A stretch of 64,000 bases of DNA from Candidatus Thorarchaeota archaeon (GTDB lineage: Archaea; Asgardarchaeota; Thorarchaeia; Thorarchaeales; Thorarchaeaceae), in NCBI GenBank assembly GCA_046482545.1, contig JAWOEX010000010.1, positions 79,849-143,848 of the forward strand. Reading direction: 5' to 3'. The translations under genes and the position numbers were made by a program. How positions within the stretch are numbered: position 1 is the stretch's first letter; the number at the start of each line of letters is the position of its first letter. The notes beneath the pieces are model-generated. The model saw only the letters and a program-made list of their open reading frames with translations. It was not told where the DNA came from and did no database searches. Below, one piece after another: positions 1,003 to 55,186 of this stretch.

Positions 1003-1497
1003 TTGCCTCAACAACTTACTGTGGACTATCAGAAATGTACGGGATGCCGGCTTTGCGAATTAGCTTGCTCAGCTCACCATGAAGGGAAATTTCAACCAAG
1101 CTTGGCGCGACTGAAGATTGTGCGGTACGATGATTTGGGAATTGATATTCCGAATGTTTGCGGTCCCTGCGAAGAGGCACCTTGCGTTGATGTTTGCCCG
1201 ACATACGCAATGCGGCGAGACCCAGTTACCAAGATGACCTATGTGGAACATGAAAAATGCATTCTCTGCAAATCGTGTATTGGAGCATGTGTCAACGGCG
1301 TTATTCGCCTAGATACTGAAAGGATGCGGATTATCAAATGTGATCATTGTGGAGGGGATCCTAGGTGTGTTAAGATTTGCCCGACAGGAGCAATTCAATA
1401 TGGGCCGCCTGCAAGAACCACAGTTGTTGACCGGCATGATAAGGCAGAAGCATATCTCTCAGAGATGGCTCGTACTGCAAGTGAAGGTGAGGCATAG
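1003..1497 (+). CDS. 4Fe-4S polyferredoxin (four CxxCxxCxxxCP-type clusters), the electron-transfer partner of AOR
   Basis: Cys motifs CTGCRLCELAC, CGPCEEAPCVDVCP, CILCKSCIGAC and CDHCGGDPRCVKICP. TTG start. Its stop overlaps the AOR start (TAGATG), so the two are translationally coupled. Confidence 0.85.
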   Translation: MPQQLTVDYQKCTGCRLCELACSAHHEGKFQPSLARLKIVRYDDLGIDIPNVCGPCEEAPCVDVCPTYAMRRDPVTKMTYVEHEKCILCKSCIGACVNGVIRLDTERMRIIKCDHCGGDPRCVKICPTGAIQYGPPARTTVVDRHDKAEAYLSEMARTASEGEA

Positions 1498-3393
1498 ATG
1501 ACCGTTGGAGGATACAAGGAATCAATTCTACGAGTCGACCTTACTAACGAGCAATTCAAGCACGAACAGATTCCTAAGGAATGGATTGTGGACTACATCG
1601 GTGGTGATGGATTTGCAGCCAAGATTCTTTTTGAAGAAGTGCCACCAGAATGTCGGCCCTTGGATGAGGGTAACAAACTGATTCTTGCAACTGGCCCGGT
1701 CACAGGAACCCTTTGGCCAACGAGTGGGAGGTCTGCTTTCTTTTCAAAAGCAGCACTAACGGGAATCTGGGGAGAAAGTCATGTGGGGGGATTCTTAGGA
1801 CCTGAGCTGAAGTATGCAGGTTATGACCTTCTTGTGGTGGAAGGGCGTTCTGAGAAACCCGTTTACATTAGTATCGTTGATTCAGATTTGCGTCTGAAAG
1901 ATGCTACTGATTTGTGGGGAAAAACAACAGATACGACTACGTCAGAGATTCGTCGCTTGCAACAGGATCCCGATACGCAGGTTGCAGCAATTGGTCCGGC
2001 AGGTGAACACGGTGTTCGTTTTTCGTCCATTATCGTCAATCACGCTCGAGCAGCTGGTCGAACTGGAATGGGCGCAGTTCTTGGCTCTAAAAATGTCAAA
2101 GGCATCGCTATTCGAGGGCGAGGGCCAGTCGAAGTGCATGACCACGAAGCCTTCGTAGAATTAGCGAAAGACGCACATAGGAGGACTCGGGAAAATCCTC
2201 AGGCTCAGGAGATGAGCAAGTGGGGTACATGGTCACTAACGGCAACAAAACAAGAAATAGGTGAACTCCCAACATATAATCATAGAACAGGTGTCTTCTC
2301 AGGTTGGGAGAGGCTGAGTGCCAGTTATATCCGTCCGCGATACACGGTGTCGGATCGAGCTTGTTTTGGCTGCAGTATTGGGTGCAAAAAGGTCAACTAC
2401 ATCAAAGAAGGTGAGTATGCAGGTACGCTTGAAGAGGGACCAGAGTATGAGGGTCTGATGGCGTTTGGCAGTTCATTGGGAATTGATGATTACCCAGTTT
2501 GTCTGAAGGCAAACGAAATCTGCAATAAGTATGGAATGGATATTATTTCAGCAGGAACAACAATAGCATTTGCCATGGAGTTATTTGAACAAGGAATTCT
2601 CACTGTGGAAGATACTGGCGGATTGGAGCTTGAGTGGGGAAACAACGAGGCAGCTCTAGATCTCCTTAGAATGATTGGTGAACGGGAAGGGCTTGGTGAA
2701 GTACTATCAAAAGGAAGCAGGAAGGCTGCAAAGGCTATTGGCCCTGAAGCAGAAAAGTATGCAATGCACGTAAAGGGACTGGAAGTATCGGGTCAGGATG
2801 GGCGCACTCATAGAAGCATTGGTCTGGCGCATGCGACCGCCGCGAGGGGTGCAGACCATCTGAGAAGTCTGGTGACTGTAGATCAACTTGGATATGAAGA
2901 TGTAGCTGCCAAGCGCTGGGGTAAAGACAAACTGCCTGAGATTATTGACCCATACACTGAGAAATACAAGGCAGCGGCTGTAGTTGAAACTGAAAACGCC
3001 TATTGCATTCGTGATACGTTAATTGTTTGCTGGTATTCTGTTTCATGGCCGCCTATATTTTGGATGGAGGACTTTGCTGAATTGCTACCCTTGGCTACAG
3101 GAATTGAAGAATTCGGTAGTGTTGACAAGCTGAATCTGATTGCAGAACGACAAGTAACGCTCAAACGGCTTTTCAATGCACGAGAAGGCATCACCCGACA
3201 AGATGATATGTTGCCAAGTAGGTTTACTGATGATCCTATGCCCGAAGGACCTGGAAAGGGACAGACCGTGGACTTGAACCCGATGCTCGATGCCTATTAT
3301 CGCAGGCGTGGCTGGAATAAAGAGACCGGTTTGCCCACTAATAGAACAATCAAGCATCTCTCGCTGGGATGGACAAGAGATTTAATGAATTAA
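1498..3393 (+). CDS. aor: Tungsten-containing aldehyde:ferredoxin oxidoreductase (AOR family)
   Basis: 631 aa. AOR N-terminal domain (DYIGGDGFAAKILFEEV) and the cluster/pterin region (DRACFGCSIGCKK) are present. Length and organisation are typical of AOR/FOR/WOR paralogs. Confidence 0.93.
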   Translation: MTVGGYKESILRVDLTNEQFKHEQIPKEWIVDYIGGDGFAAKILFEEVPPECRPLDEGNKLILATGPVTGTLWPTSGRSAFFSKAALTGIWGESHVGGFLGPELKYAGYDLLVVEGRSEKPVYISIVDSDLRLKDATDLWGKTTDTTTSEIRRLQQDPDTQVAAIGPAGEHGVRFSSIIVNHARAAGRTGMGAVLGSKNVKGIAIRGRGPVEVHDHEAFVELAKDAHRRTRENPQAQEMSKWGTWSLTATKQEIGELPTYNHRTGVFSGWERLSASYIRPRYTVSDRACFGCSIGCKKVNYIKEGEYAGTLEEGPEYEGLMAFGSSLGIDDYPVCLKANEICNKYGMDIISAGTTIAFAMELFEQGILTVEDTGGLELEWGNNEAALDLLRMIGEREGLGEVLSKGSRKAAKAIGPEAEKYAMHVKGLEVSGQDGRTHRSIGLAHATAARGADHLRSLVTVDQLGYEDVAAKRWGKDKLPEIIDPYTEKYKAAAVVETENAYCIRDTLIVCWYSVSWPPIFWMEDFAELLPLATGIEEFGSVDKLNLIAERQVTLKRLFNAREGITRQDDMLPSRFTDDPMPEGPGKGQTVDLNPMLDAYYRRRGWNKETGLPTNRTIKHLSLGWTRDLMN

Positions 3394-5280: not shown

Positions 5281-6324
5281 CTATCTTCTATTCTTCATAG
5301 ATGGCTTTGCAACCTTCTTGATGAATCGCCAGGCTTGCCTACTGTTTAGCACCCCTGCTTCCAGCTCTCTTAGGATTCTATAGACTGATGGACCAACCAT
5401 ACCCCAACCCATGTTATGGAGCTTCCTGAGGAAATTACAACCGAATGTCTCTCGCCTGGGTGAAAACCCGTGGTGTTTCAGTATATCCTTCATTCGGTAT
5501 TTCGTCAAGCTCAGAAGTGCCGGTAAGTGGATTTGGAGCATCCCATCTTGTTCCTGTAGGGCCTGCCTCCCTGTTGGAAGGCTTTGACCCGTCACTACAA
5601 TATTGTGCCCATCCGCTTTGGCTTCTTCAATGACCTTCGCCATGAGCGCTGTATGACATTCACCGCAGGGATGAATCCGCCCTTGTCTTGATTTTTCCAT
5701 AATACCCTCAATCATGCTTGGGACTTCTACAATGCGGCAAGTAGCATCAAGCTTTTCACAGACCTCTACTATGGCACGTATGTCTGGGGGTGCCAAGACT
5801 TGAGGATGCGGAGATATCGTATAGGCTACGCACTCCATTTCGGCATCTCGAAGAATAACTAGGGCCGCAGAGCTATCCACCCCTCCTGAATAGGCAACTG
5901 CTGCAAGTCCCTTATTGTTGTCTGGCTGGTAATCATGCAGTGACTGAGCCGGAAACGCAATCTCAAGTGCGATGAGAGCCTCAAGCCAGGGAAATAGGTT
6001 ATTATCACTAAATTTGCTTGTAGTCATAAGTTCGTGCAGCCTGTGCTTGCTGGCTTCAAGTCTTACCCGTCTAAGCGCCAGCTCGTCCGCTCCATGAAAT
6101 GCTACATCCTTTCCTATTTGTCGTGCGATTTTAGCCGCTAGCCTACCCCCAGGGCCTATACATTGGCTTTTCTCAGCTCTGTCAGGAACGATTGCATGAA
6201 GTTGGCCTTCTGGATGCTCAAGAACTTTCCGTACTTGAGGGTTTTCTCCTCGGTCTAGGTTCAAGCTCTTTCTTGTATCTTCTAGCAGTCGCGCCATTTC
6301 TACAGCATCCATCCAATAAGCCAC
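5281..6324 (-). CDS. PP-loop ATP pyrophosphatase-family protein with N-terminal KH-like domain (tRNA-thiolase/LarE-like; exact function unresolved)
   Basis: SGGVDSS PP-loop, downstream HPCGECH and NIVVTGQ motifs, and an N-terminal GxxG KH-like segment (CIGPGGRLAAKIARQIG). Confidence 0.6.
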   Translation of the reverse strand: MAYWMDAVEMARLLEDTRKSLNLDRGENPQVRKVLEHPEGQLHAIVPDRAEKSQCIGPGGRLAAKIARQIGKDVAFHGADELALRRVRLEASKHRLHELMTTSKFSDNNLFPWLEALIALEIAFPAQSLHDYQPDNNKGLAAVAYSGGVDSSAALVILRDAEMECVAYTISPHPQVLAPPDIRAIVEVCEKLDATCRIVEVPSMIEGIMEKSRQGRIHPCGECHTALMAKVIEEAKADGHNIVVTGQSLPTGRQALQEQDGMLQIHLPALLSLTKYRMKDILKHHGFSPRRETFGCNFLRKLHNMGWGMVGPSVYRILRELEAGVLNSRQAWRFIKKVAKPSMKNRR

Positions 6325-7332: not shown

Positions 7333-7421
7333 TAAGATTGCCACCCATTTCAGCTACGAACAGGTTTGCAATGGAAACCTATATACGGAATAGCTCGGCG
7401 CATCGTTGTGGTGGCTAATCC

Positions 7422-8822
7422 TTGACAAAGAGATTTACTCCCTCCGGGGTAATGCCCGCACTTGTTACACCATTCACTAGACATGGTGATATACATGAAG
7501 AGGGCCTCAAGGAGGTAATAGATTACACTATTGAGAAAGGGTGTACGGGGGTGGTTCCTGCAGGAACCACCGGTGAATTTGTCTACATGCGAACTGAAGA
7601 GAGAAAGAAGTTACTCAAACTGACAGTAGAACATGTGGATGGCCGTGTCCCTGTGGTAGCTGGAACTGGACAGAACAGCACCCGCGCCACAATCAGCCTT
7701 ACAAAGTACGCTGCTGATTTGGGCTGTGATGCAGCTCTGGTTGTTTCACCTTTCTTCTTGCGCCCAGATGATAAAGGGTACTACCAACATTATGCAGATG
7801 TAGCAAGAGAAGGGAATCTTCCTGTAATCCTGTATAATATCCCTCAATGTACCCTTGGGACCCTACAATCCAACGTCGTTCAGGATTTGGCGGATCTCGA
7901 CAATATCGTTGGAATCAAGGATAGTGGAGGGGATATCGGTCATACAATGGAACTAATACAGAAGGTTAGTGACAGAATCCCTGTCCTGATAGGACATGAT
8001 GAGTGCTTCCTCTCAGCAGTATCTGCTGGAGCTAGCGCTGCTATTATGGCTTCAGCAAATATTATGCCACATATCTGGCTGGAAATAATGGAGTGTGTCC
8101 AGAACGGAAACTTCGAGAAAGCACGAAAAATGCAACTGGATGCTCAGACGCTTGCCAGAATAGTCACAAGAAATGGGGGTGCTCCACCTGTGAAGGCTGC
8201 CCTCAAAATGATGGGTATTGAAGCGGGATATTCTCGAATGCCACTTGATTCTGGAGGAACACTTACACGGGAACTGAAGGAAGAAATCAGATTGGAGCTT
8301 GAAAAGCTTGGCCTGATAGAAACTCCAACTAGGTCACCACTTCAGGAAAAGCCTGACGTACGGAAATTAGCTACCGACCTTGGCTTTGAGAATCCCGATT
8401 TTGAAGGGTGTAGATTCGCTACAGCGGCGAATGATACAGTCTCGGTGACTGTTGTTACTGGAAAGAAGAAATCAGCAATTGGAGATTTCTTTGTAAGGCT
8501 ACTCACCACACCCAAACAGGGCTATGAAGGGCTTACCGTTATTCTAGAGCCAAATTTGGCGGTAAAACCGAGCTCATTAATGGTTCCTGCCAGAGGAATA
8601 CAATCCATGCGTCAAGCTTCTCTTTTCTATGGCCCCGTTCAATCCGGTGCTGCTAAGGCGATAGCAGCCACAGTGGAATCTGGTGCTATAAGCGAAGAGA
8701 GAATCGACGACACGTTGATGATTCTAATGCTAGATGTGAACTTGGACTCGCGTGACCGCAGGAAGATAGTCACAGCCACGGAAGAAGTAGTCGCTGAAGC
8801 AATGAGTTCTATTTGGAGCTGA
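7422..8822 (+). CDS. DapA/NAL-family class I aldolase fused to a C-terminal Fae-like domain that lacks the HxxxH motif
   Basis: N-terminus has ALVTPF, PAGTTGEF and the Schiff-base region IVGIKDSGGD. C-terminal ~160 aa aligns to formaldehyde-activating enzyme (LTVILEPNLAVKPSSLMVP, FYGPVQSGAAKAIAATVESGAI) but has no EVAH motif. TTG start. Confidence 0.75.
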   Translation: MTKRFTPSGVMPALVTPFTRHGDIHEEGLKEVIDYTIEKGCTGVVPAGTTGEFVYMRTEERKKLLKLTVEHVDGRVPVVAGTGQNSTRATISLTKYAADLGCDAALVVSPFFLRPDDKGYYQHYADVAREGNLPVILYNIPQCTLGTLQSNVVQDLADLDNIVGIKDSGGDIGHTMELIQKVSDRIPVLIGHDECFLSAVSAGASAAIMASANIMPHIWLEIMECVQNGNFEKARKMQLDAQTLARIVTRNGGAPPVKAALKMMGIEAGYSRMPLDSGGTLTRELKEEIRLELEKLGLIETPTRSPLQEKPDVRKLATDLGFENPDFEGCRFATAANDTVSVTVVTGKKKSAIGDFFVRLLTTPKQGYEGLTVILEPNLAVKPSSLMVPARGIQSMRQASLFYGPVQSGAAKAIAATVESGAISEERIDDTLMILMLDVNLDSRDRRKIVTATEEVVAEAMSSIWS

Positions 8823-8826
8823 GAAA

Positions 8827-10302
8827 ATGAGTGATGATTTTAAGTTTCAAGGTGTCTATCCGGCCCTCGTTACACCTTTTGACGAGGGCGGCGTGAACGC
8901 ATCGCAGTACAAGGGTTTGATTGAGCATTTGATTGGAAGGGGCGCGACTGGAATTGTTCCTTGCGGTACAACCGGTGAGTTTACCAGTATGACTTTTGAT
9001 GAGCGTTTGCAAGCCATCCGAATCGCATGTGAGACAGCTGCGGGACGCGTACCCGTCATGGCTGGTACAGGTGCCCCATACACGGCAGATGCGGTCAAAC
9101 TCACTCGACGAGCAGCTGAATTGGGAGCGGATGCTGCTCTAGTGGTTACTCCATATTTCCTTAAGCCCTCCACAAAGGAAATCTACGAACACTACACGCG
9201 AGTAGCTGAGGCCAGTGACCTCCCCATCTTTCTGTACAATATTCCGCAAGTAACAGGAATCAAGCTGGACTGGAAACTGGTCGATGGCTTACAAGAAATA
9301 GATGGTATTGCTGGCATGAAAGATTCTAGTGGCGATCTGGTTAACCTTACAACCATTCTATTGCGACGCCCTCATGATTTTCAGGTTGTTGTAGGCCATG
9401 ATGAAGTGGCATTTCCTGCTCTTGCGGCGGGTTGTGATGGAGCCATACTCATGAGTGCAAATGTCTTTCCTAATCGATACATTCAGATGCAAAGTGCTCT
9501 GTCAAGAGGGAATCTCAAAGATGCGAAGATTGTGCAAAGGACGATTCAAAAGACTGTACGCCTCCTTGTCAATAAGGGGGGTGCAATCGCAGTCAAAACT
9601 GCATTGAATATGATGGGCATAAATGTTGGAGATGCTCGGAAACCTCTTCTCGAAGGTGATTTGTTTAGTTTTGAGGATCTTGATGAGCTCAGGACATGCT
9701 TAGAGGATTTGCAGCTGATTCCAAGAGGACCTGTGACATTCAAGATGGGCAATCGGGAAATAGTTGCCGAACAATATCCAAAGGCTGCAGGAATTGTTGC
9801 TGATGTTGTTGATGACTTGACACTCCTGCATGGAGAATCTCTGTGCGGTGGTGGTCATGAGGTCGCCCATGTTGATTTGGTGATGGGTATCAAGACAGGT
9901 CCAATGCAACAGGCTTTAGAAACAGCAGATAAGATAGTAAAGGGTTTCCATCAGTCAAACATTATCAAAAATCTTCAGCCAACAACGGTCTTTGCGCCTA
10001 CAGTGAATATCACTGATGAAGCCCACAAAGAAATGGTATATGATGTAGCCGAGAAAGCAGTCGCTGATGCGGTTACCAGAACTGTGACAGATCAAATCAT
10101 ACCCGAGGAACTTGTTCCTGATCTCGTCATTGCGGTTAACGCCTTTGTTCACCCTGCTGCTAATAACAAGCGTAGGGTGCACATCAATAATTTCCGCGCT
10201 GTTCGGCATGCTCTTAGACGCGCTATTGAAGGACGACCTGATATTTCTACAGTCATAGAACAGAAGAACTCATCTCGGCATCCTTTTGCCTATGGTCCAT
10301 AA
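8827..10302 (+). CDS. DapA/NAL-family class I aldolase fused to a complete Fae (formaldehyde-activating enzyme) domain
   Basis: N-terminus has ALVTPF, PCGTTGEF and IAGMKDSSGD. C-terminus has GESLCGGGHEVAHVDLVMG ... AVNAFVHPAANNKRRV ... EQKNSSRHPF, which is canonical Fae. GGAG RBS 8 nt upstream. Lies 4 nt after the paralog. Confidence 0.8.
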   Translation: MSDDFKFQGVYPALVTPFDEGGVNASQYKGLIEHLIGRGATGIVPCGTTGEFTSMTFDERLQAIRIACETAAGRVPVMAGTGAPYTADAVKLTRRAAELGADAALVVTPYFLKPSTKEIYEHYTRVAEASDLPIFLYNIPQVTGIKLDWKLVDGLQEIDGIAGMKDSSGDLVNLTTILLRRPHDFQVVVGHDEVAFPALAAGCDGAILMSANVFPNRYIQMQSALSRGNLKDAKIVQRTIQKTVRLLVNKGGAIAVKTALNMMGINVGDARKPLLEGDLFSFEDLDELRTCLEDLQLIPRGPVTFKMGNREIVAEQYPKAAGIVADVVDDLTLLHGESLCGGGHEVAHVDLVMGIKTGPMQQALETADKIVKGFHQSNIIKNLQPTTVFAPTVNITDEAHKEMVYDVAEKAVADAVTRTVTDQIIPEELVPDLVIAVNAFVHPAANNKRRVHINNFRAVRHALRRAIEGRPDISTVIEQKNSSRHPFAYGP

Positions 10303-12073: not shown

Positions 12074-12859
12074 TTAACTCTCGGATGACGCTCTTACAGC
12101 AATAAGAGCTGCAATAGCTCCGCCACCAATACCATTCCCAATGTTGACTACAGCCAAGCCGGGAGCACAGGACTGAAGCATGGAGGCCAAAGCGGTTTCG
12201 CCCCTCCCACCATGTCCGTATCCGATAGGCACAGGTACGCCAATAACTGGGATATCAACCAGTGAAGCCACTACTGTGGGTAGAGCCCCTTCCATTCCTG
12301 CAAATACAACTATTGCATGAACTTGTTCTTCTCTTATTTTCTGGAGCGGTTCGATAAGTCGGTGAATGCCTGAGACGCCAACATCACGGAATCTCAATAC
12401 ACCCACCCCCATGGTTTCTGCAACAGCTTGGGCTTCTTCTGCAAAGAATTCATCGGAAGTCCCTGCTGTGATAATCGCAATCATGCCGCCTGTTCTTTTT
12501 GGTATCCATCTGGGATGATGAACTAACAGAGTCATGTGGTTTCCACCCCCTCTGATATCAAATTCAAAATCCGCGAGATGATTTTCAAGGTACTCTACTT
12601 GTTTTTCGTTGACACGGGTGGCAAGTACAAAATCCTTCACTTCGAGCATGGCTCGGAGAATCTGCATCAGTTGTTCGCTTGTCTTCGTTTCAGCCATAAC
12701 AACTTCTGGAATGCCGCTCCTGTGTTCACGCCCAGGATCAATTACAGCTAAATCTCCAACTTTCTGCAATTCTAGTTTTTGCAATCTCTTTTGAGCTTCA
12801 TCAACATTGATTTGGCCTGAAGCTAGGGCTTCCAAAACCTCTCGAATTTCTTGCATCAC
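12074..12859 (-). CDS. larB: LarB-like (PurE/NCAIR-mutase-related) nickel-pincer cofactor biosynthesis carboxylase
   Basis: C-terminal PurE-like fold (IAIITAGTSDEFFAEEA...VVFAGMEGALPTVVASL...PVIGVPVPIGYGHGG) preceded by a ~100-aa N-domain, as in COG1691/LarB. Confidence 0.7.
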   Translation of the reverse strand: MMQEIREVLEALASGQINVDEAQKRLQKLELQKVGDLAVIDPGREHRSGIPEVVMAETKTSEQLMQILRAMLEVKDFVLATRVNEKQVEYLENHLADFEFDIRGGGNHMTLLVHHPRWIPKRTGGMIAIITAGTSDEFFAEEAQAVAETMGVGVLRFRDVGVSGIHRLIEPLQKIREEQVHAIVVFAGMEGALPTVVASLVDIPVIGVPVPIGYGHGGRGETALASMLQSCAPGLAVVNIGNGIGGGAIAALIAVRASSES

Positions 12860-26350: not shown

Positions 26351-29017
26351 CTATTGCAGGTAGCCACTGACGTCCTTCAGGTCGTGAGCCTGCAACGAGG
26401 GGGTATTAGCGGCAGCCTCTAGTAGGGTATCGATTACCGAATCTGCGCGTGTTACTTCTGTACAAAGCAGAGCCCGACTCCCAGCGATTTTTGCTACAAG
26501 GTAGGCACCGAATTCTTTCCGGAACGCTGAAACTGATAGAATTGTCTCAATTGGATCCGAGTGGCCCTCTTTGCGCATGCGAAGATATGTAGCAAGTTCC
26601 AATGCCTGATGATAGGGCCGCTTCAAGATGGAACTCCACTTGATTTGGTTTCGGTTCACATTGACAGGTACAACCGGCACATCGTTTTTCTTCAAAATAC
26701 GCGTGGACTTGATGATGTCGCGTACTGGTGTATATCTAGGATGACCTGGGCCTGCAGATTGTTCTAGTGGGATATTGGGCGCAAAATCGGAGAGAAGAAC
26801 AACTAATGGTTGAACTCCTCGATTCCTCATCCGCTCTCGTTTCACAGTCTCAAGTGATTTCATAAGTCCCTCAGCCAAAGGAGTCAATCCTGAAATCCTG
26901 AGCTTTAGAAGAGCACGATATAGACGATTCCAGTTTGTTGTTGGAGCCTGAACCTCAATGGCTCCGCTATCCTTGAAGGCGATAATCCCTACACGATCCT
27001 TGGAACCGCGCGTTTCATCCTCAATTCGTTGCACAATCTCACGAATATGTTTCAGACTTCCTTTGATAGACATACTCACATCTATGACGAGCAGAACTGT
27101 CAGTGGTGTCTTGCCCGAGAATATTCGTTCTCTCAAATCCGATTTTGTAATCTGCAGGTAATCAGTGTCATCAATTTGGCCAGTTCTGGCAACAGCTGCA
27201 ACTAACGACGCAGGAAGATCTATGCTCTGAACCTCCCCTACAGGTATCCGTGATCTTGTGGAGCGACCATGTTGGGCGATTTCCGAAGATTGCATCGAAC
27301 CCACAGAACGAGTCGAACGATTTTTTCTAGACCATGCACCGGAAGTGACTCTGGACCGCACCAGTGACCTCTTCTGAATCTCTTCCTTCTCAAAAACAGG
27401 TTCACCAGCATCAAGGTCAGGAGTCTTAACGAAAAACGTATTTTCGAGGTCCAAAGGTGGTTGACGGATGTCTGACTTGGATCCAATTACTTCAGATTTC
27501 TCCGTCTCACTGTATTGCCCAGTGGCTATCCCCCATTCATCTCCCGCTTGTGGTTCTGCCTTGCCGGGTTCGACTACATCAATACCTGCTGCAGGACCAC
27601 TCTTTCGTTTCTGCATGGTCCGAAGCCACCGTCGGATAGTTAGAGCAATGAGTGGGACATAGATTACTGCGTTCAAAACGAGTAGCGGCGGAGGAGGAAA
27701 GACTCCAATCCCAGATCCAAAGAGAATATTGAGGGGACTCAGGTAAATCCAAGCAAAGAAACCAAAGAAAGCAACCATCATGACAACAAGGATAGTTCCT
27801 CTAATCGGAAGGCCTCTAGGATTCCTTACTTTCGACGTTTTTTTTTTGCCTTCTTGGCCTCCCCATGCGGCAAACGAAGACTGTCTTCCGAATTTCCACC
27901 CGCTCTTTCGTTCATCAGTCTCTTCTGAGGAAGCTGGCACTTCGGTGGGCGATTTCCTTTCATCGTCAGTCTTGGTGATGTCCGCAGCCCGAGTAATTGC
28001 TTTATCAATCTCGGAAGGAGACGGAGGTTCCAAGAGACCGCCGCGCCGTGTCCTGTGACTAAGCGCCAGTTGAGCTCCAAGCTTCATATCTTCCAAAGTA
28101 ACGTATTTCCGTCCTTGGAAGGCTGCGTGGGTTATAGCCGCCTTACTGATAACAATATCAGGTCTGACTCCATCAACCTCTAGAGCATCACAAGCCATTG
28201 CTATTGCCCGTAATTTGGATTCACTAAATACAATTCCGTCAAGAATATCTCTAGCTTTGACAATTCGCTCCCGCAGCTGTGCTTGCAGCTCGGACCACTT
28301 TTCTCTAAATTCCTTAGGATTCTGCTCAAATTCAAGATTCCGTCGAACTAATTGCATCCGTTCTTCAATTGAATGCCCACCTCCCACAGATACATGCAAA
28401 GGGAATCGATCCAACAATTGAGGTCTGAGCTCTCCTTCTTCTGGATTCATAGAACCCATCAATACAAAATCTGCAGGATGGGAGACGGATATACCTTCAC
28501 GCTGTACAACATTAACTTTCGTTGCTGCCGCGTCAAGTAAATCGTCAACAAGGTGATCAGGAAGCAGATTGACCTCATCAACATACAGAATATTCTGATT
28601 GGCCTCTGCCAGAATTCCCGGCTGCAATGCCCGAATTCCTTCTTGGAGTATACGTTCTATATCGAGAGAGCCCACAAGGCGATCTTCGGTTGTCGAAAGC
28701 GGGAGATTAACGACGCGCATCTTCCGTTTTTCAGTCGAGAGAGACTCACCTGATTCAACCCTTGCTCGACAATCAGCACAGAGGAGTTCCTCATTCAAAG
28801 GGTTGCAGCTAAAGGGGCAATCGCTTACGACTTCCACTTTAGGCAACAGGTCGGCTAACGCCCTGACAATAGTTGTCTTGCCGGTACCCTTGGCTCCAGA
28901 AACCAACACGCCTCCAATTCGCGGATTGACACCATTCAGAATCAGAGCAATCTTTAGTCGTTCCAGTCCCACTAGAGCGGTGAATGGTAGAACAGACCTT
29001 CCGCGAGGCTCACTCAC
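26351..29017 (-). CDS. ChlI/BchI-type AAA+ ATPase fused via a linker containing two TM helices to a ChlD-type vWA domain
   Basis: N-terminus LPFTALVGLERLKIALILNGVNPRIGGVLVSGAKGTGKTT...CPFSCNP...ILYVDEVNLL. Mid-protein TM segments GTILVVMMVAFFGFFAWIYL / VFPPPPLLVLNAVIYVPLIALTI. C-terminal vWA with MIDAS LLVIDVSMSIKG...GLTPLAEG. Confidence 0.8.
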   Translation of the reverse strand: MSEPRGRSVLPFTALVGLERLKIALILNGVNPRIGGVLVSGAKGTGKTTIVRALADLLPKVEVVSDCPFSCNPLNEELLCADCRARVESGESLSTEKRKMRVVNLPLSTTEDRLVGSLDIERILQEGIRALQPGILAEANQNILYVDEVNLLPDHLVDDLLDAAATKVNVVQREGISVSHPADFVLMGSMNPEEGELRPQLLDRFPLHVSVGGGHSIEERMQLVRRNLEFEQNPKEFREKWSELQAQLRERIVKARDILDGIVFSESKLRAIAMACDALEVDGVRPDIVISKAAITHAAFQGRKYVTLEDMKLGAQLALSHRTRRGGLLEPPSPSEIDKAITRAADITKTDDERKSPTEVPASSEETDERKSGWKFGRQSSFAAWGGQEGKKKTSKVRNPRGLPIRGTILVVMMVAFFGFFAWIYLSPLNILFGSGIGVFPPPPLLVLNAVIYVPLIALTIRRWLRTMQKRKSGPAAGIDVVEPGKAEPQAGDEWGIATGQYSETEKSEVIGSKSDIRQPPLDLENTFFVKTPDLDAGEPVFEKEEIQKRSLVRSRVTSGAWSRKNRSTRSVGSMQSSEIAQHGRSTRSRIPVGEVQSIDLPASLVAAVARTGQIDDTDYLQITKSDLRERIFSGKTPLTVLLVIDVSMSIKGSLKHIREIVQRIEDETRGSKDRVGIIAFKDSGAIEVQAPTTNWNRLYRALLKLRISGLTPLAEGLMKSLETVKRERMRNRGVQPLVVLLSDFAPNIPLEQSAGPGHPRYTPVRDIIKSTRILKKNDVPVVPVNVNRNQIKWSSILKRPYHQALELATYLRMRKEGHSDPIETILSVSAFRKEFGAYLVAKIAGSRALLCTEVTRADSVIDTLLEAAANTPSLQAHDLKDVSGYLQ

Positions 29018-29100: not shown

Positions 29101-30249
29101 ATGACCTCACGAATGACTCATCTTCACTGTCCAAACTGTGGAAAGAAATACAAGGCTGAACCCGGAATTTCATACTGCTCATGCGGCTCTCCCATTTTTG
29201 CACAATATGATATCAAAGCTGTTTCGGAGGATATTGCAAACAATGATTTCCCCGGAAGGGAGAATTCGATGTGGAGATATGCCAGTCTGTTACCTGTTGA
29301 CTCGCGAAGAGCTGTCACATTGGGTGAAGGTTGGACTCCTTTACTTTCATCAAAACGTATCCATGAATACATGGGCCTAGAATCGGTCTATATCAAGCAA
29401 GAATCGCAAAACCCTACGTTGAGCTTCAAAGATCGTGGACTCAGTGCCGCTATCTCCAAACACACTCAACTTCGGAGCAACCATTTTGTAATTCCATCAG
29501 CAGGTAATGCAGCCATATCCATGTCAGCTTATGCTGCAGCTGCTGGGGCTCTAGCGACAGTTTACATGCCTGAAAATACACATGAGTCATTTTTCCAAGC
29601 TTGTTCCCAATATGGAACAGAAGTCATTGCTGTGAAAGGAACTATCGCAGATTGCGGTACAGCGGTACAGAAAAATGAGGGGGTTTGGACCGATATCTCA
29701 ACAACAAAAGAGCCATTTCGGGTGGAAGGTAAGAAAACACTAGGTTTCGAAATATGTGAACAGATGAACTGGTCACTTCCTGAAGTGATTATCTGTCCTA
29801 CCGGCGGAGGAACCGCACTTCTCGGTATATGGAAAGGAATACAGGAGCTTGAGAATGTGGGACTCATCGATGGGACCCGGCCCCGTATGTTTGCAGCGCA
29901 GAGTGATGGTTGTGCGCCCGTCGTCCGAGCGTTCAAAGCCGGATCCAAGACAATTGAGCCTTGGGAAGATAGTGAGACAAAGGCCTTAGGTCTGCGTGTT
30001 CCAAAACCATTCGCAGATGAATTGATTCTAGATATACTGCGAGAGTCAGAAGGAGGAGCAGTAGCAGTAGATGAAAAATCGATTGGAAAAACTAGACGAT
30101 TAGTAGCAGAAGACGAGGGTATTGATATGTGCCCCGAAGCTGCGGTGGCTATCGCTGGAGCAAAGAAACTTGTTGAACAGAGAAACATAGACAAGAATGA
30201 AGATGTCGTGGTTCTGAACACCGGTTCAGGGGTCAGATATCCAAGCTAG
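29101..30249 (+). CDS. thrC: Threonine synthase (archaeal type with N-terminal zinc ribbon)
   Basis: CPNCGKKY...CSCGS ribbon, then PLP motif SFKDRG. Confidence 0.9.
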   Translation: MTSRMTHLHCPNCGKKYKAEPGISYCSCGSPIFAQYDIKAVSEDIANNDFPGRENSMWRYASLLPVDSRRAVTLGEGWTPLLSSKRIHEYMGLESVYIKQESQNPTLSFKDRGLSAAISKHTQLRSNHFVIPSAGNAAISMSAYAAAAGALATVYMPENTHESFFQACSQYGTEVIAVKGTIADCGTAVQKNEGVWTDISTTKEPFRVEGKKTLGFEICEQMNWSLPEVIICPTGGGTALLGIWKGIQELENVGLIDGTRPRMFAAQSDGCAPVVRAFKAGSKTIEPWEDSETKALGLRVPKPFADELILDILRESEGGAVAVDEKSIGKTRRLVAEDEGIDMCPEAAVAIAGAKKLVEQRNIDKNEDVVVLNTGSGVRYPS

Positions 30250-30887
30250 GTTTTATTTGGCAGGTGGTCAAGAATAAATCTCAAATCATTCTCTTTTATT
30301 ACAACGTCAGCTGCTTCTGCTACTTCGTCATCTTCCGGACAAAACGCTATTGAAAGTCCCACATGAGAAAAAGCGCTGACATCATTTTTCCCATCACCTA
30401 CGTATGCGGTTTGTTCTAGTGGAACAGCAAAGCGATTAGCGATTTGTTGGATTAGACTACCCTTCTCCCCCCATTCGACACGCACATCCACTTCACCTGT
30501 AATCTTACCATCCTCGTGTAGTAAGCGATTTGTCATAACACAGTCTATGCCTAAACGATTTCCGACATGTTCTGCTACTATATCTAACCCTCCAGATATG
30601 ATGGCCAACTCAGCCCCCGCATCCTTGAGAGCTTCAACTGTCTCCATCGCCCCCGGAGTCAAGTCGGATGTCTTCGCTAATTCTGCTGCATCTTCAATTT
30701 TTTTGCCTTTCCATAATGATGCATCTAGAGTTGCCCATTGTTTATAGTTAATATCACCAGCGAAGTACCGATTGAAATACGCCTTACCTTCAGCTTGGGT
30801 TCCAAAATGCTCGTGCAGTCTCCACCAGATAGAGGAATGGGTTGTAAGAGTGCCATCAACATCAAACACTACAAGGCGTATTGTCAT
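30246..30887 (-). CDS. serB: Phosphoserine phosphatase-like HAD hydrolase
   Basis: LVVFDVDGTLT motif I and GDGKNDVSAF motif III. Confidence 0.8.
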   Translation of the reverse strand: MTIRLVVFDVDGTLTTHSSIWWRLHEHFGTQAEGKAYFNRYFAGDINYKQWATLDASLWKGKKIEDAAELAKTSDLTPGAMETVEALKDAGAELAIISGGLDIVAEHVGNRLGIDCVMTNRLLHEDGKITGEVDVRVEWGEKGSLIQQIANRFAVPLEQTAYVGDGKNDVSAFSHVGLSIAFCPEDDEVAEAADVVIKENDLRFILDHLPNKT

Positions 30888-30918: not shown

Positions 30919-31569
30919 TTATGAACTTCGCTCTCGTTCAGTGCGTGCTTCTTCTTCCAACTCTAGTAGAAGCTCCTCAACCCTATTAGAAGCAGCCTCA
31001 TTTCGTTGCTTCACAGCCGCCTGTTGCTTCTCGACCGATGGAACAGCAGTTTTTTTCTCCATAAGAACTTCGGCTTCAATATTGCTCAGCCGTTTCTCAA
31101 TCTGTTCTTCTTCCGCAATAGTTGTTCCTGACCCAACTAAATCCTCTGATAGGAGCTCACTCGATATGGACACTCGCTCCAGAGAATCTGAGAGTTTATC
31201 CATTTCTTCCTGAATTTCAGCAGGTGAAAGCATATCCCGAGCTTGATTCAATGCCCGGTTTGCAGTGCGAAGGGTTTTGAGAATCCTGGTCTGATCGCTA
31301 GATTCTTCTATGCTCATCAATGCAGATTGAAGAGTCTGGAATTGCTGCTGATACCTACCAAGTCTCTTCTCAAGGTCAACCGCTACTCCAAGATGAGTTC
31401 TGGCTACGCTTTTGTTTCCTTGTTTTACAGCCTTCTTCGCTGCACGATGCTCCTCGGAAATACGGGTTTCGAGCTTCCTTATGCGGAGAGTGATAGCGTT
31501 CATAGTCCCTTTAATCTCTAGAATTCCTCTCTCGGCATCAACTTCCTTCTTGCCGCTTAGGAAACCCAT
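30919..31569 (-). CDS. ESCRT-III / Snf7 (CHMP)-family protein
   Basis: MGFLSGKK N-terminus. KKAVKQGNKSVARTHL...DLEKRL...QTLQSALMSIEE...TLRTANRALNQ...MLSPAEIQEEMDKLSD aligns with the Snf7 core. Acidic C-terminal tail. Confidence 0.75.
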   Translation of the reverse strand: MGFLSGKKEVDAERGILEIKGTMNAITLRIRKLETRISEEHRAAKKAVKQGNKSVARTHLGVAVDLEKRLGRYQQQFQTLQSALMSIEESSDQTRILKTLRTANRALNQARDMLSPAEIQEEMDKLSDSLERVSISSELLSEDLVGSGTTIAEEEQIEKRLSNIEAEVLMEKKTAVPSVEKQQAAVKQRNEAASNRVEELLLELEEEARTERERSS

Positions 31570-31658
31570 AATGTGCACCAGTCCGGTTCTACAACCTGTC
31601 TCCTCAGCGAGAGCATTTAAACGATTGGACTATCCAGACATATAACGGAAGTCTCAGC

Positions 31659-40181: not shown

Positions 40182-41048
40182 TCATACTAGGTATATCAAT
40201 GTGGCCAAATGAGCAGCCCAAGGAAACATACCTAAAATTGCAGGTATTGGAATAGCTGGGAAGATCTTCCCTTTCTGCGCCAGTACGGTCAAATTAATCA
40301 CGACTCCCAGGAAGGATAACGCCATTGAACTTAGCCAGACATGAAACGGGAAGAAAAGAAGTGCATGCGATGAGATAAGAGAATAGGCGATGAAATCCCC
40401 AACCCCGACTACGGTATCCTTGGATTTTATTCTTGTGTAGTCGAAAGGATCCTCTCCCACATTTCCAGTCATCTGTGCGGACCGAACAACAGGAGAATAC
40501 CGAGTAAGGAAGTAGTCTTCAGCTACAATGGTGAATACAAGAACAAACATTGTCGGGGTCGCCAAAGTGGCAGCGAGGAAAGTGCCAAAGACTGCACCAT
40601 AGAACGCGACGTATATATTTCGTATTGAAGTAGGAATCGCATCTACTACTACCAAGATAATGGATAACATAGAAATCCCTATCGAGAGAACCATTACAAG
40701 ACCCTCCAAAATTGTCTGACTCCCCTTGAATAATATCAGAAGAAAGGCTTGACCTAAAAACAGAGAGACAAAGAAGATGATGGGCGATACAACAAATGCT
40801 ACAACTATCTTCCGTGCACTTCGACTACGCCTGTGAAGTATCCAGAACAGTGAGAATACAACCAATGAACCTATGACTGTCGACACTAGGGCTTGCAAGA
40901 CAAGCTCCAGAGGGGTGAACGAATCTCCATTCCCTATTGTCCGCCCAATCAGAGATGTGTTCCGCACAACATAAGCCAAACCTGAGCCAACAAGAAGGGG
41001 AAGAGATGAAATTGTTACTCCTATCAAGTGATGTCTATCCAGTCTCAT
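40182..41048 (-). CDS. Polytopic membrane protein with presenilin/SPP-like GxGD and PAL-like motifs (possible A22 intramembrane aspartyl protease homolog)
   Basis: VVGVGDFIAYSL (compare presenilin GLGDFIFYS) and FPAIPIPAILG about 50 residues downstream. Roughly 9 TM helices. Confidence 0.5.
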   Translation of the reverse strand: MRLDRHHLIGVTISSLPLLVGSGLAYVVRNTSLIGRTIGNGDSFTPLELVLQALVSTVIGSLVVFSLFWILHRRSRSARKIVVAFVVSPIIFFVSLFLGQAFLLILFKGSQTILEGLVMVLSIGISMLSIILVVVDAIPTSIRNIYVAFYGAVFGTFLAATLATPTMFVLVFTIVAEDYFLTRYSPVVRSAQMTGNVGEDPFDYTRIKSKDTVVGVGDFIAYSLISSHALLFFPFHVWLSSMALSFLGVVINLTVLAQKGKIFPAIPIPAILGMFPWAAHLATLIYLV

Positions 41049-54254: not shown

Positions 54255-54638
54255 ATGAGCGAGAGCGAAACTCAGATTGCTATCGAGTTCGAAGACGGGA
54301 CGACACTCAACGGCATACTCGATAGGGTAAGAGGGCCTATGATTACCGAGGAAATCATCTCACGTCTCCCAATCCAAACGAGAGCTGCGATGATTAGAGG
54401 GGAAATGAGAATGAATCTGGATATCGGTAAGGGAAATATCAAACCAACGAAGGAAGTAGCACGGGGAGACATTGCATATATGCCACTGGGGGATTCACTT
54501 GTGATTTATCTTGAGGACTCCAGAACATTCAGCAAGGTTAATGTAATTGGCACCATAGAACCCAGCAGTCACAACAAATTGGATAAGCTAAGAGAGATAA
54601 GAAGGGGGAGTCAGGTTGTCTTAAGAACCCCTTCTTAG
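54255..54638 (+). CDS. Cyclophilin-like-fold small protein (PF04126-like; hypothetical)
   Basis: GDIAYMPLGDSLVIYLEDSR...KVNVIG pattern. Confidence 0.4.
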   Translation: MSESETQIAIEFEDGTTLNGILDRVRGPMITEEIISRLPIQTRAAMIRGEMRMNLDIGKGNIKPTKEVARGDIAYMPLGDSLVIYLEDSRTFSKVNVIGTIEPSSHNKLDKLREIRRGSQVVLRTPS

Positions 54639-55186
54639 AGCCTTTGGATATTCCGAAGAAGTGTTTCATTCTTATCAATTTGTTTTTCAGAAGGATCTAC
54701 AACGAAGCCAGATTCGTGGCATTCAATCATGACTTCCACGCCTGAGTCCTTCACAGCCTTGAATCCACTGTTAGACAAAGGTCTAACTCTCAGCTGTTTT
54801 GTATCGAACTCTATTCTGTCATGAGCCTGTTGAATCTCGGCATCCTTTCGGATCTTCGACTTTGCGATACGGAGCTGTTGTTTGAGCTGGGCAACCTCTA
54901 CTTGAAGCTCCTTCTTTTGCTTCGTCACCTTCTCCAATTCTTCTTTTGTTGCCTCATATTTGTCTTTTTCAACAAACCGATCTGATTCATCAACCCAGGT
55001 TATCGTAGTTCCATCAAACCGCCGATTGGTCTCCACCTTGCCCATCGCTTTCAGAATAGCGATGACATCATATATTCTCCTCTTGGGAGTCTCCAATCGT
55101 TCGGCAAGTTGGTCACTACGTATACCATCTTCGCCTTCTTCTTTTATTACATCAATACTGCGTTCTGCAATTTCCACTAGTTTCAC
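54635..55186 (-). CDS. Winged-helix (KRRIYD-type, E2F/DP-like or TrmB-like) DNA-binding protein with coiled-coil and C-terminal domain
   Basis: SDQLAERLETPKRRIYDVIAILKAMGKVETNRRFDGTTITWVD followed by a K/E/Q heptad region. Confidence 0.6.
   Translation of the reverse strand: MKLVEIAERSIDVIKEEGEDGIRSDQLAERLETPKRRIYDVIAILKAMGKVETNRRFDGTTITWVDESDRFVEKDKYEATKEELEKVTKQKKELQVEVAQLKQQLRIAKSKIRKDAEIQQAHDRIEFDTKQLRVRPLSNSGFKAVKDSGVEVMIECHESGFVVDPSEKQIDKNETLLRNIQRL

Follow-up and report, generated by a model that had tools for sequence, protein, structure and literature searches.

What chemistry joins a class I aldolase to a formaldehyde-activating enzyme (Fae) domain in one polypeptide, and why should two such polypeptides be encoded side by side? 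The question is raised by two adjacent genes, called A and B here, in a 64,000-nt stretch of a Candidatus Thorarchaeota archaeon genome (assembly GCA_046482545.1, contig JAWOEX010000010.1, positions 79,849 to 143,848 of the forward strand). We refer to this whole stretch as the window and count positions from its first letter. Comparison with related loci indicates that the Fae domains of A and B each lack the part that the other keeps, and that their aldolase domains lack the acceptor site of DapA. We tentatively read A and B as partner subunits of a single bifunctional hetero-oligomer acting in formaldehyde and pyruvate chemistry, a picture that as a whole falls somewhat short of being probable. 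The two genes and the signals around their starts are as follows.

7422–8822 (+): gene A ('up' type), 466 aa, TTG start; DHDPS-family aldolase with a half-degenerate Fae-like domain
8827–10302 (+): gene B ('down' type), 491 aa, ATG start; DHDPS-family aldolase with a Fae domain retaining the catalytic His
7380–7413 (+): putative operon expression signals before the TTG; TATA-like CTATATAC at 7380–7387, Shine-Dalgarno-like GGTGG at 7409–7413
8817–8826 (+): GGAG (8817–8820, within the 3' end of gene A) and the 4-nt gap between gene A and the start codon of gene B

An earlier reading of the window, made from the sequence only, had described two adjacent paralogs 4 nt apart, each with a DHDPS/NAL class I aldolase N-domain with an intact Schiff-base Lys and a C-terminal Fae-family domain. 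All of this was borne out: the two open reading frames lie on the + strand with a 4-nt spacer, and both domains were recovered by Pfam in both proteins. The DHDPS domain (PF00701) scored 265.1 bits in A (aa 7–288) and 249.5 bits in B (aa 6–276), above the gathering threshold in each case, and the Fae domain (PF08714, cutoff 27) scored 93.2 bits in A (aa 336–461) and 113.3 bits in B (aa 336–487). The Schiff-base Lys lies in IVGIKDSGGD in A (Lys166) and in IAGMKDSSGD in B (Lys165); further motifs found in the pair were GESLCGGGHEVAHVDLVMG, FVHPAANN, RHPF, LTVILEPNLAVKPSSLMVP and FYGPVQSGAAKAIA. Over their full length A and B are 34% identical. The TATA-like and Shine-Dalgarno-like signals were read by eye and show consensus resemblance only; together with the 4-nt spacer, the Shine-Dalgarno-like signals fit a single operon, and the GGAG with its short spacer suggests translational coupling of A and B.

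Protein P0121 of a Thorarchaeota metagenome-assembled genome (MAG) is 100% identical to A, and B has a 98% identical counterpart in Thorarchaeota/Promethearchaeia MAGs and more than 100 homolog clusters at 63–98% identity. The AlphaFold2 model of A reached a pLDDT of 84.9 and a pTM of 0.77. Linkers of ~35 aa join the domains (A, 8311–8426; B, 9721–9831). The linker of A varies (31%). That of B, conserved like its domains (70% mean identity among Thorarchaeota homologs), may have a structure of its own, perhaps as part of the interface or of a tunnel.

The pair belongs to a larger family. Scanning GTDB species-representative genomes with two Fae-domain motifs as query returned 581 relatives, and at least ~68 of the best 80 loci, which we inspected, encode DHDPS+Fae fusions. 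The architecture had been called unfamiliar: it is not peculiar to one genome, but it does stand without an assigned function. Databases name the fusions either '4-hydroxy-tetrahydrodipicolinate synthase' or 'formaldehyde-activating enzyme', and assign a function to none. They come in two forms: a single gene of ~495 aa (Lokiarchaeota, most Bathyarchaeia, Undinarchaeales, Borrarchaeia and locus L004) and a tandem up/down pair (Thorarchaeota, Korarchaeota, Thermoplasmata, Anaerolineae, loci L007 and L010, and others). The up-then-down order and a spacing of 0–20 nt or an overlap are conserved in Thorarchaeota, Korarchaeota, Thermoplasmata, Anaerolineae and others.

Complementary Fae domains in the tandem pairs

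Fae accelerates the reaction of formaldehyde with tetrahydromethanopterin (H4MPT) to methylene-H4MPT. It is reportedly a homopentamer that binds methylene-H4MPT in a cleft between adjacent subunits, where Gln88 and the C-terminal arm touch the cofactor and respond to its binding and His22 serves as acid catalyst. Fae entries in the PDB hold five chains each (2 entries, 10 chains). The Fae domains of A and B compare with the enzyme of Methylorubrum extorquens as follows.

8427–8804 (+): Fae-like domain of A, without the GExLxG/EVAHxDL segment and without the C-terminal RHPF arm
8442–8444 (+): Ser341 of A, in place of His22
8550–8552 (+): Pro377 of A, in the retained LEPNL
8631–8642 (+): Gly404 to Gln407 of A, in the retained YGPVQ
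9832–10287 (+): Fae domain of B, aligned to M. extorquens Fae (1y5y, residues 8–167, 77 bits); LEPNL loop deleted, YDVAE in place of GPxQ
9868–9870 (+): His348 of B, the equivalent of Fae His22, in GESLCGGGHEVAHVDL
10150–10152 (+): His442 of B, in FVHPAA
10279–10281 (+): His485 of B, in the RHPF C-terminal arm

The His22 equivalent is present in B (His348) and absent from A (Ser341); only the two chains together supply it. The earlier remark that this segment is missing from the first copy was correct. The second copy had been credited with a full Fae signature, which it does not have: neither the LEPNL loop nor the YGPxQ motif, both kept in A, is present in B, which carries Glu at the position of Gln88. 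A lacks the C-terminal arm but keeps PN and GPxQ, and neither chain has the full set of cofactor-site residues. The NCBIfam Fae equivalog model TIGR03126 (cutoff 118.05) reflects this, with B barely above the cutoff at 121.8 and A below it at 85; true single-gene fusions score 193–219 bits, so that A and B each give roughly half of that signal.

We then counted the conservation of Fae residues, numbered as in M. extorquens Fae, over ~35 singles, 26 up copies and 26 down copies. Singles carry Glu10, His22 and Asp24, the Pro57/Asn58 loop, Gly85-Pro86-x-Gln88, His123 and the HPF arm. Up copies keep Pro57, Gly85, Pro86 and Gln88 (26/26 each); His22 is replaced in 24/26 and the HPF arm is absent in 26/26. 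Down copies keep Glu10, His22, Asp24 and His123 (26/26 each) and the HPF arm (25/26); their PN loop is deleted in 25/26 and Pro86 is present in 0/26. Sixty-six Fae columns are at least 90% conserved in singles, and 14 of these are conserved in up copies only, 30 in down copies only, 9 in both and 13 in neither. The up-only columns form one contiguous block in the middle of the domain, and the down-only columns form N- and C-terminal blocks. By this count the Fae domains of A and B are complementary half-degenerate copies, in a pattern that is strict over 26 pairs. The paralogs had earlier been described as diverged; the two copies do differ, but not by simple divergence, since the halves lost are complementary in 26 pairs and singles keep everything. 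A tree of Fae domains separates one clade of up copies from another of down copies and singles, and the duplication is therefore old.

Complementary Fae halves and an H4MPT site lying between subunits together lead us to predict that A and B assemble into a hetero-oligomer whose Fae sites are composite. The H4MPT site would lie in the cleft between adjacent Fae subunits, with B supplying one face and A the other; a complete Fae site would form only at the B–A interface, and the A/B pair would be an obligate heteromer. Stand-alone Fae of M. extorquens (1Y5Y/1Y60) differs from the fusions in having no aldolase attached, and it has the residues that each of them lacks, namely His22 and the C-terminal arm (missing from A) and the APNL loop and FGPAQ motif (missing from B). 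Since neither A nor B has the whole conserved set, a homopentamer with five equal sites is unlikely.

The same domains could instead be a scaffold or a pterin-binding regulator, without channelling, for an aldolase acting on another aldehyde or 4-hydroxy-2-oxoacid, of the HOGA, YagE or KDG aldolase type. Fae is a robust pentamer that has already served as a scaffold for fusions (8ub7 Avd-Fae, 45 chains in 9 entries), and the catalytic His is clearly lost in the up copy. On the aldolase side, HOGA1 and YagE are the best structural neighbours, and the G(H/W)DE motif of the fusions resembles NAL-type sugar-binding sites (Asp191/Glu192 of NAL). We regard this explanation as unlikely. A mere scaffold would not need each conserved Fae block to survive in one partner of a pair, as it does; nor would it account for singles that retain every conserved Fae residue and score as true Fae on the equivalog model. 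Sugar-acid genes, moreover, are not consistently found nearby.

Aldolase domains and the DapA acceptor site

The DapA name in public records has two sources: the fusions pass the NCBIfam dapA equivalog cutoff (TIGR00674; 233.7 and 231.2 for the two window proteins versus 206.15), and the best PDB sequence matches of the A and B aldolase domains are true DapA (183 bits). We therefore compared active-site residues, located in the window as follows.

7440–8285 (+): class I aldolase (DHDPS/NAL family) TIM-barrel domain of A
7566–7568, 7833–7835 and 7917–7919 (+): Thr49, Tyr138 and Lys166 of A
7848–7850 (+): Cys143 of A, at the DapA Arg138 position
7755–7757 (+): Phe112 of A, at the Tyr107 position
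8842–9654 (+): class I aldolase domain of B, aligned residue by residue to Bacillus anthracis and Aquifex DapA
8968–8970, 9235–9237 and 9319–9321 (+): Thr48, Tyr137 and Lys165 of B
9250–9252 (+): Val142 of B, at the DapA Arg138 position
9157–9159 (+): Phe111 of B, at the Tyr107 position

DapA uses a catalytic triad of Tyr133, Thr44 and Tyr107', and Arg138 of the E. coli enzyme binds the carboxylate of L-aspartate semialdehyde. The fusions share with DapA (PDB 3hij, 2ehh, 1dhp) the TIM-barrel fold, Lys161, Tyr133 and Thr44/Thr45 in the GTTGE motif. Among 92 full-length fusions taken from related loci, Thr44, Thr45, Tyr133 and Lys161 are invariant (92/92; Thr49/50, Tyr138 and Lys166 in A, Thr48/49, Tyr137 and Lys165 in B). 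Arg138 is absent from every one of them (0/92), with C, V, T, M, L or A at its position. The site reads YNIPQCT in A and YNIPQVT in B, versus YNVPGRS in B. anthracis and YNIPSRT in Aquifex, and ordinary DapA-like proteins of ~295 aa from the same search retain YN[IV]PxRT. Tyr107, the second Tyr of PYYNKP, is Phe in A and B and either Tyr or Phe across the fusion family. The fusions further differ from DapA in having G(H/W)DE for GDD, in adding the ~35-aa linker and a Fae domain of ~130–155 aa, and in having no lysine-pathway context: dapB, dapF, lysA and dapL were not found within ±10 kb in seven annotated neighbourhoods, nor among recurrent neighbours.

These residues bear on the choice between a genuine lysine-pathway DapA, to which Fae has been fused for an unrelated or merely co-regulated activity, and an aldolase of another kind. 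In favour of the former are the TIGR00674 score of both proteins, the PDB matches and an ArgE/DapE-family M20 deacylase gene downstream. That gene lies 0.6–4 kb downstream in Thorarchaeota loci only, where it belongs to a Thorarchaeota-specific synteny among unrelated housekeeping genes. Arg138 is replaced throughout the fusions while canonical DapA-like proteins keep it, Tyr107 is Phe in both window proteins, the lysine genes are absent from every inspected neighbourhood, and two DapA paralogs with complementary Fae halves make no sense for lysine synthesis. A true DapA is on these grounds very improbable, and the suggestion that the N-domains are not canonical DapA was confirmed by Cys and Val at the Arg138 position, Phe at Tyr107 and inspected loci without lysine context. 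Lacking the aspartate-semialdehyde determinant, A and B are therefore not DapA; judged by its active-site residues, each has an active-looking class I aldolase domain of the pyruvate type, whose acceptor site differs from that of DapA. Their kin within the DHDPS family include HOGA1 (4-hydroxy-2-oxoglutarate aldolase) and YagE/YjhH, the 2-keto-3-deoxy-pentonate aldolases of E. coli. HOGA1 and YagE, which are the closest structural neighbours of the aldolase domain by a small margin over DapA, are retro-aldolases releasing pyruvate and a small aldehyde.

Candidate chemistry of the pair

We propose formaldehyde as the aldehyde substrate of the aldolase: the fused Fae is the sole direct clue, and the one characterised precedent, the Fae/Hps fusion found in methanogens, offers an analogy. 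Fae/Hps (NF009833, methanogenic archaea), the bifunctional 5,6,7,8-tetrahydromethanopterin hydro-lyase / 3-hexulose-6-phosphate synthase, resembles the present fusions, as we read them, in that Fae is covalently joined to a formaldehyde aldolase, in H4MPT-using archaea, by a logic in which formaldehyde is never freed. It differs in that Fae is N-terminal there and C-terminal in A and B, and in that its partner is a metal-dependent sugar-phosphate aldolase of the OMP-decarboxylase fold, whereas A and B have a class I Schiff-base pyruvate aldolase of the DHDPS family. A and B have no Hps domain and match only model positions 4–161 of 392 (70.7 and 99.3 bits versus a cutoff of 274). Fae/Hps is not known in a paired, complementary-degenerate form.

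The reaction would be pyruvate + methylene-H4MPT + H2O ⇌ 4-hydroxy-2-oxobutanoate (HOB) + H4MPT, in which the Fae site and the pyruvate enamine would exchange formaldehyde without setting it free. HOB could then be transaminated to homoserine; in the reverse direction a 4-hydroxy-2-oxoacid would be cleaved and its one-carbon unit passed into the H4MPT branch of the Wood-Ljungdahl pathway. The H4MPT Wood-Ljungdahl pathway is reported from both Thorarchaeota and Lokiarchaeota genomes (PMC6737245). We infer the HOB reaction as the most economical reading of the fusion chemistry, one that gene context speaks neither for nor against. In E. coli, the synthetic homoserine cycle likewise makes a 4-hydroxy-2-oxoacid from a 2-oxoacid and formaldehyde, in a HOB aldolase step carried out by RhmA and other promiscuous enzymes (PMC8879981). 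HOB is described as a non-native metabolite in E. coli. The HOB aldolases of that cycle and PanB (ketopantoate hydroxymethyltransferase) perform the net chemistry proposed for A and B, and PanB takes its formaldehyde from a methylene-pterin; unlike A and B, they are class II or metal-dependent enzymes and structurally unrelated. The searchable literature describes no natural dedicated enzyme that couples the HOB aldol step to H4MPT.

The same hydroxymethyl transfer could act on another 2-oxoacid. A and B might be an H4MPT-dependent analogue of PanB that converts 3-methyl-2-oxobutanoate to 2-dehydropantoate, or they might use 2-oxobutanoate, in coenzyme A (CoA) or other core biosynthesis. A housekeeping role of this kind fits the wide conservation of the fusion among anaerobic archaea that use H4MPT, where a locus usually holds one copy or one pair. 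PanB carries out the proposed reaction in a 3,3-dimethyl version, with a methylene-pterin as formaldehyde donor, and a conserved ~427-aa TIM-barrel neighbour (Lokiarchaeota, Bathyarchaeia, Anaerolineae, Undinarchaeales) could be the next pathway step. Yet the DHDPS-family enzymes characterised to date use pyruvate, and the fusions keep the residues that bind it, Thr44/45 and Tyr133; a quaternary carbon formed through a class I enamine would be unusual; and pantothenate or CoA genes were seen beside the fusion in none of the inspected loci. We consider a PanB-like role quite unlikely.

Returning to the bifunctional pyruvate–formaldehyde enzyme, several points weigh against it. The composite site hinges on the His22 and arm blocks and the PN/GPxQ block of Fae lining one cofactor site from opposite subunits. 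Five subunits in a ring cannot alternate between A and B; either the complex departs from the stoichiometry of the plain Fae pentamer, or not all of its interfaces are active. Both proteins, as noted, score above the dapA equivalog cutoff. In a divergent pair, P0247 and P0252, the Schiff-base Lys is lost from both copies (Lys to Leu and Lys to Ala), and the fusion family is therefore not uniformly an aldolase. H4MPT is not expected in Anaerolineae/Chloroflexota, which carry the fusion as well, and the pterin partner there may be a different one. Finally, no conserved neighbour pointing to a pathway (homoserine, threonine or any other) was found among the inspected loci.

The divergent pair has further peculiarities. 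P0247 (482 aa) and P0252/P0422 (475/486 aa) lie on one 79,585-bp contig, and one copy also lacks Tyr133 and GTTGE, with the Fae complementarity still present. Going by these residues, aldolase chemistry seems to have been abandoned in this lineage.

The most far-reaching form of our proposal is a dedicated enzyme that would join pyruvate by a C–C bond to the methylene group of methylene-H4MPT and so lead through HOB to homoserine and threonine. In its paired form it would be an obligate heteromer, with Fae active sites assembled from two complementary paralogs that are each defective alone, and it would act together with the ~427-aa protein found beside the single form. It would constitute an unrecognised route of one-carbon assimilation or amino-acid synthesis in Asgard archaea, Bathyarchaeia and some Chloroflexota, and we hold it to be rather doubtful.

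Distribution and gene neighbourhood of the fusion

Archaeal carriers include Thorarchaeota, Sif- and Borrarchaeia, Lokiarchaeota/Promethearchaeota, the Odin lineage, many Bathyarchaeia and Undinarchaeales, joined by relatives of Thermoplasmata/Methanomassiliicoccales and by a Korarchaeota/Thermoproteota cluster. Bacterial carriers include many independent Anaerolineae/Chloroflexota MAGs (L038–L080, contigs up to 525 kb) and a Spirochaetota MAG (L090). The presence of the up/down pair in many bacterial MAGs implies transfer between archaea and bacteria. In a rough neighbour-joining tree of aldolase domains all fusions form one clade versus DapA-like outgroups, suggesting that the fusion arose once and then spread horizontally. 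A search of 1.84 billion representatives gave only ~12–17 full-length fusion clusters at 50% identity; we discarded the estimate of rarity drawn from it as understated, since the GTDB genome scan showed a wider spread. No publication on the DHDPS+Fae fusion turned up in the searchable literature. A large study of Bathyarchaeia counts 'fae' as present and interprets it as formaldehyde detoxification (PMC10321748).

Gene neighbourhood was considered as a guide to function and set aside: the Thorarchaeota pair sits in a lineage-specific synteny with unrelated genes (CutA1, an 815-aa protein without assignment, M20, AlaX-like and others). The neighbours that Thorarchaeota and Korarchaeota loci seemed to share did not hold up either, the 'GvpG-like' proteins being dissimilar. 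In the 64-kb window we found no H4MPT, Wood-Ljungdahl or lysine genes, and an Rfam scan of the window gave zero matches.

Only two neighbour families are conserved across phyla. The first is the ~427-aa protein, which adjoins the single form in 11/11 Lokiarchaeota loci and 17 Bathyarchaeia loci, pairs in 3 Anaerolineae loci and the fusion in Undinarchaeales. It has zero Pfam, NCBIfam or PDB-sequence matches; its model is a helical bundle with a TIM-like barrel, and its structural neighbours are generic only. The second, of ~311–316 aa, lies directly upstream of pairs in L007 and in other Anaerolineae loci, and close to single-gene fusions in L004–L006 (members at L056 2010–2957 (+), L007 21–971 (+) and L004 863–1795 (−), and also in L055 and L071); it gives only a hint of peptidase U32 (E-value 0.1). 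The two families are possibly distantly related, as they share an FK[IV]S[VI]Y.G motif and align in hhalign (C1 versus C30) with an E-value of 0.004 at 8% probability. Neither occurs in the window or in the Thorarchaeota flanks. They are leads to a pathway, not evidence on it.

Other genes recur near the fusion in a few loci. LarB (239.7 bits; 12074–12859 (−) in the window) and a PP-loop ATPase that hints weakly at LarE (5281–6324 (−)) flank the Thorarchaeota pair, and a LarB-like AIRC protein and a PP-loop protein, possibly by coincidence, lie near the Korarchaeota pair (L012 1135–1899 and 1–723). LarB takes part in nickel-pincer cofactor synthesis; LarA was not seen near the Thorarchaeota or Korarchaeota pairs. 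IF-2B/MtnA-like and class II aldolase-like genes occur near pairs in Thermoplasmata, in L010 and in one Anaerolineae locus, giving the following set of methionine-salvage-like genes.

L053 5296–6967: methionine-salvage-like genes
L065 8107–10142: methionine-salvage-like genes
L056 8500–9198: methionine-salvage-like gene
L010 11991–13256 and 20474–21479: methionine-salvage-like genes

The identities of the two families (C38 and C39) come from a reading of their sequences and, for L010, also from Pfam. L010 additionally has an S-adenosylhomocysteine hydrolase and a PfkB kinase. With just 3–4 loci and partly hand-named genes, a link of the fusion to methionine salvage was too weak to use.

Several genes of the window touch on the proposed chemistry without being conserved neighbours of the fusion. 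The window holds IlvE, GDH and, 19 kb from the pair, a threonine synthase (NF006050, 479 bits) that is convergent with an adjoining SerB-like HAD phosphatase gene (29101–30887). From the threonine synthase it follows that the organism uses O-phosphohomoserine; the gene is relevant to a homoserine-producing role of the fusion but is not evidence for it. A 4Fe-4S ferredoxin-like gene followed by an aldehyde:ferredoxin oxidoreductase gene (AFOR_N/AFOR_C, 416 and 251 bits) lies 4 kb upstream of the pair (1003–3393 (+)), and an aldehyde:ferredoxin oxidoreductase gene also stands at the edge of L001, the locus of a complete Thorarchaeota genome.

Elsewhere the window carries eukaryote-like genes typical of Asgard archaea, which with the MAG proteins matching A and B mark the organism as a Thorarchaeote, and one large protein unrelated to the fusion pair.

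30919–31578 (−): Snf7/ESCRT-III
40182–41048 (−): presenilin-like membrane protease, a weak match (26 bits)
54635–55186 (−): E2F/DP winged-helix protein
26351–29017 (−): 888-aa protein with MoxR/ChlI-type AAA+ and C-terminal VWA domains

The DHDPS+Fae architecture itself is common in public MAGs. What the sequence comparisons above bring out is a counterpart of Fae/Hps in which the aldolase partner is of the class I pyruvate type and Fae is split into complementary domains, and which is mis-annotated as DapA. As a natural example of subfunctionalisation, at what would be an active site between subunits, the loss of complementary Fae half-sites in 26/26 pairs is very clean. Such genes stand in hundreds of archaeal and Chloroflexota genomes under the automatic names DapA or Fae, and metabolic reconstructions count them so; if the fusion is a true two-activity enzyme, the lysine and one-carbon inferences for these genomes need revisiting. 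Metabolic engineers have assembled the step from pyruvate and formaldehyde to HOB out of promiscuous enzymes, and the fusion, if our reading is true, would be its natural counterpart. Coupling a methylene-H4MPT site to a pyruvate aldolase of class I would then open a new one-carbon path, from the methyl branch of the Wood-Ljungdahl pathway to C4 2-oxoacids.

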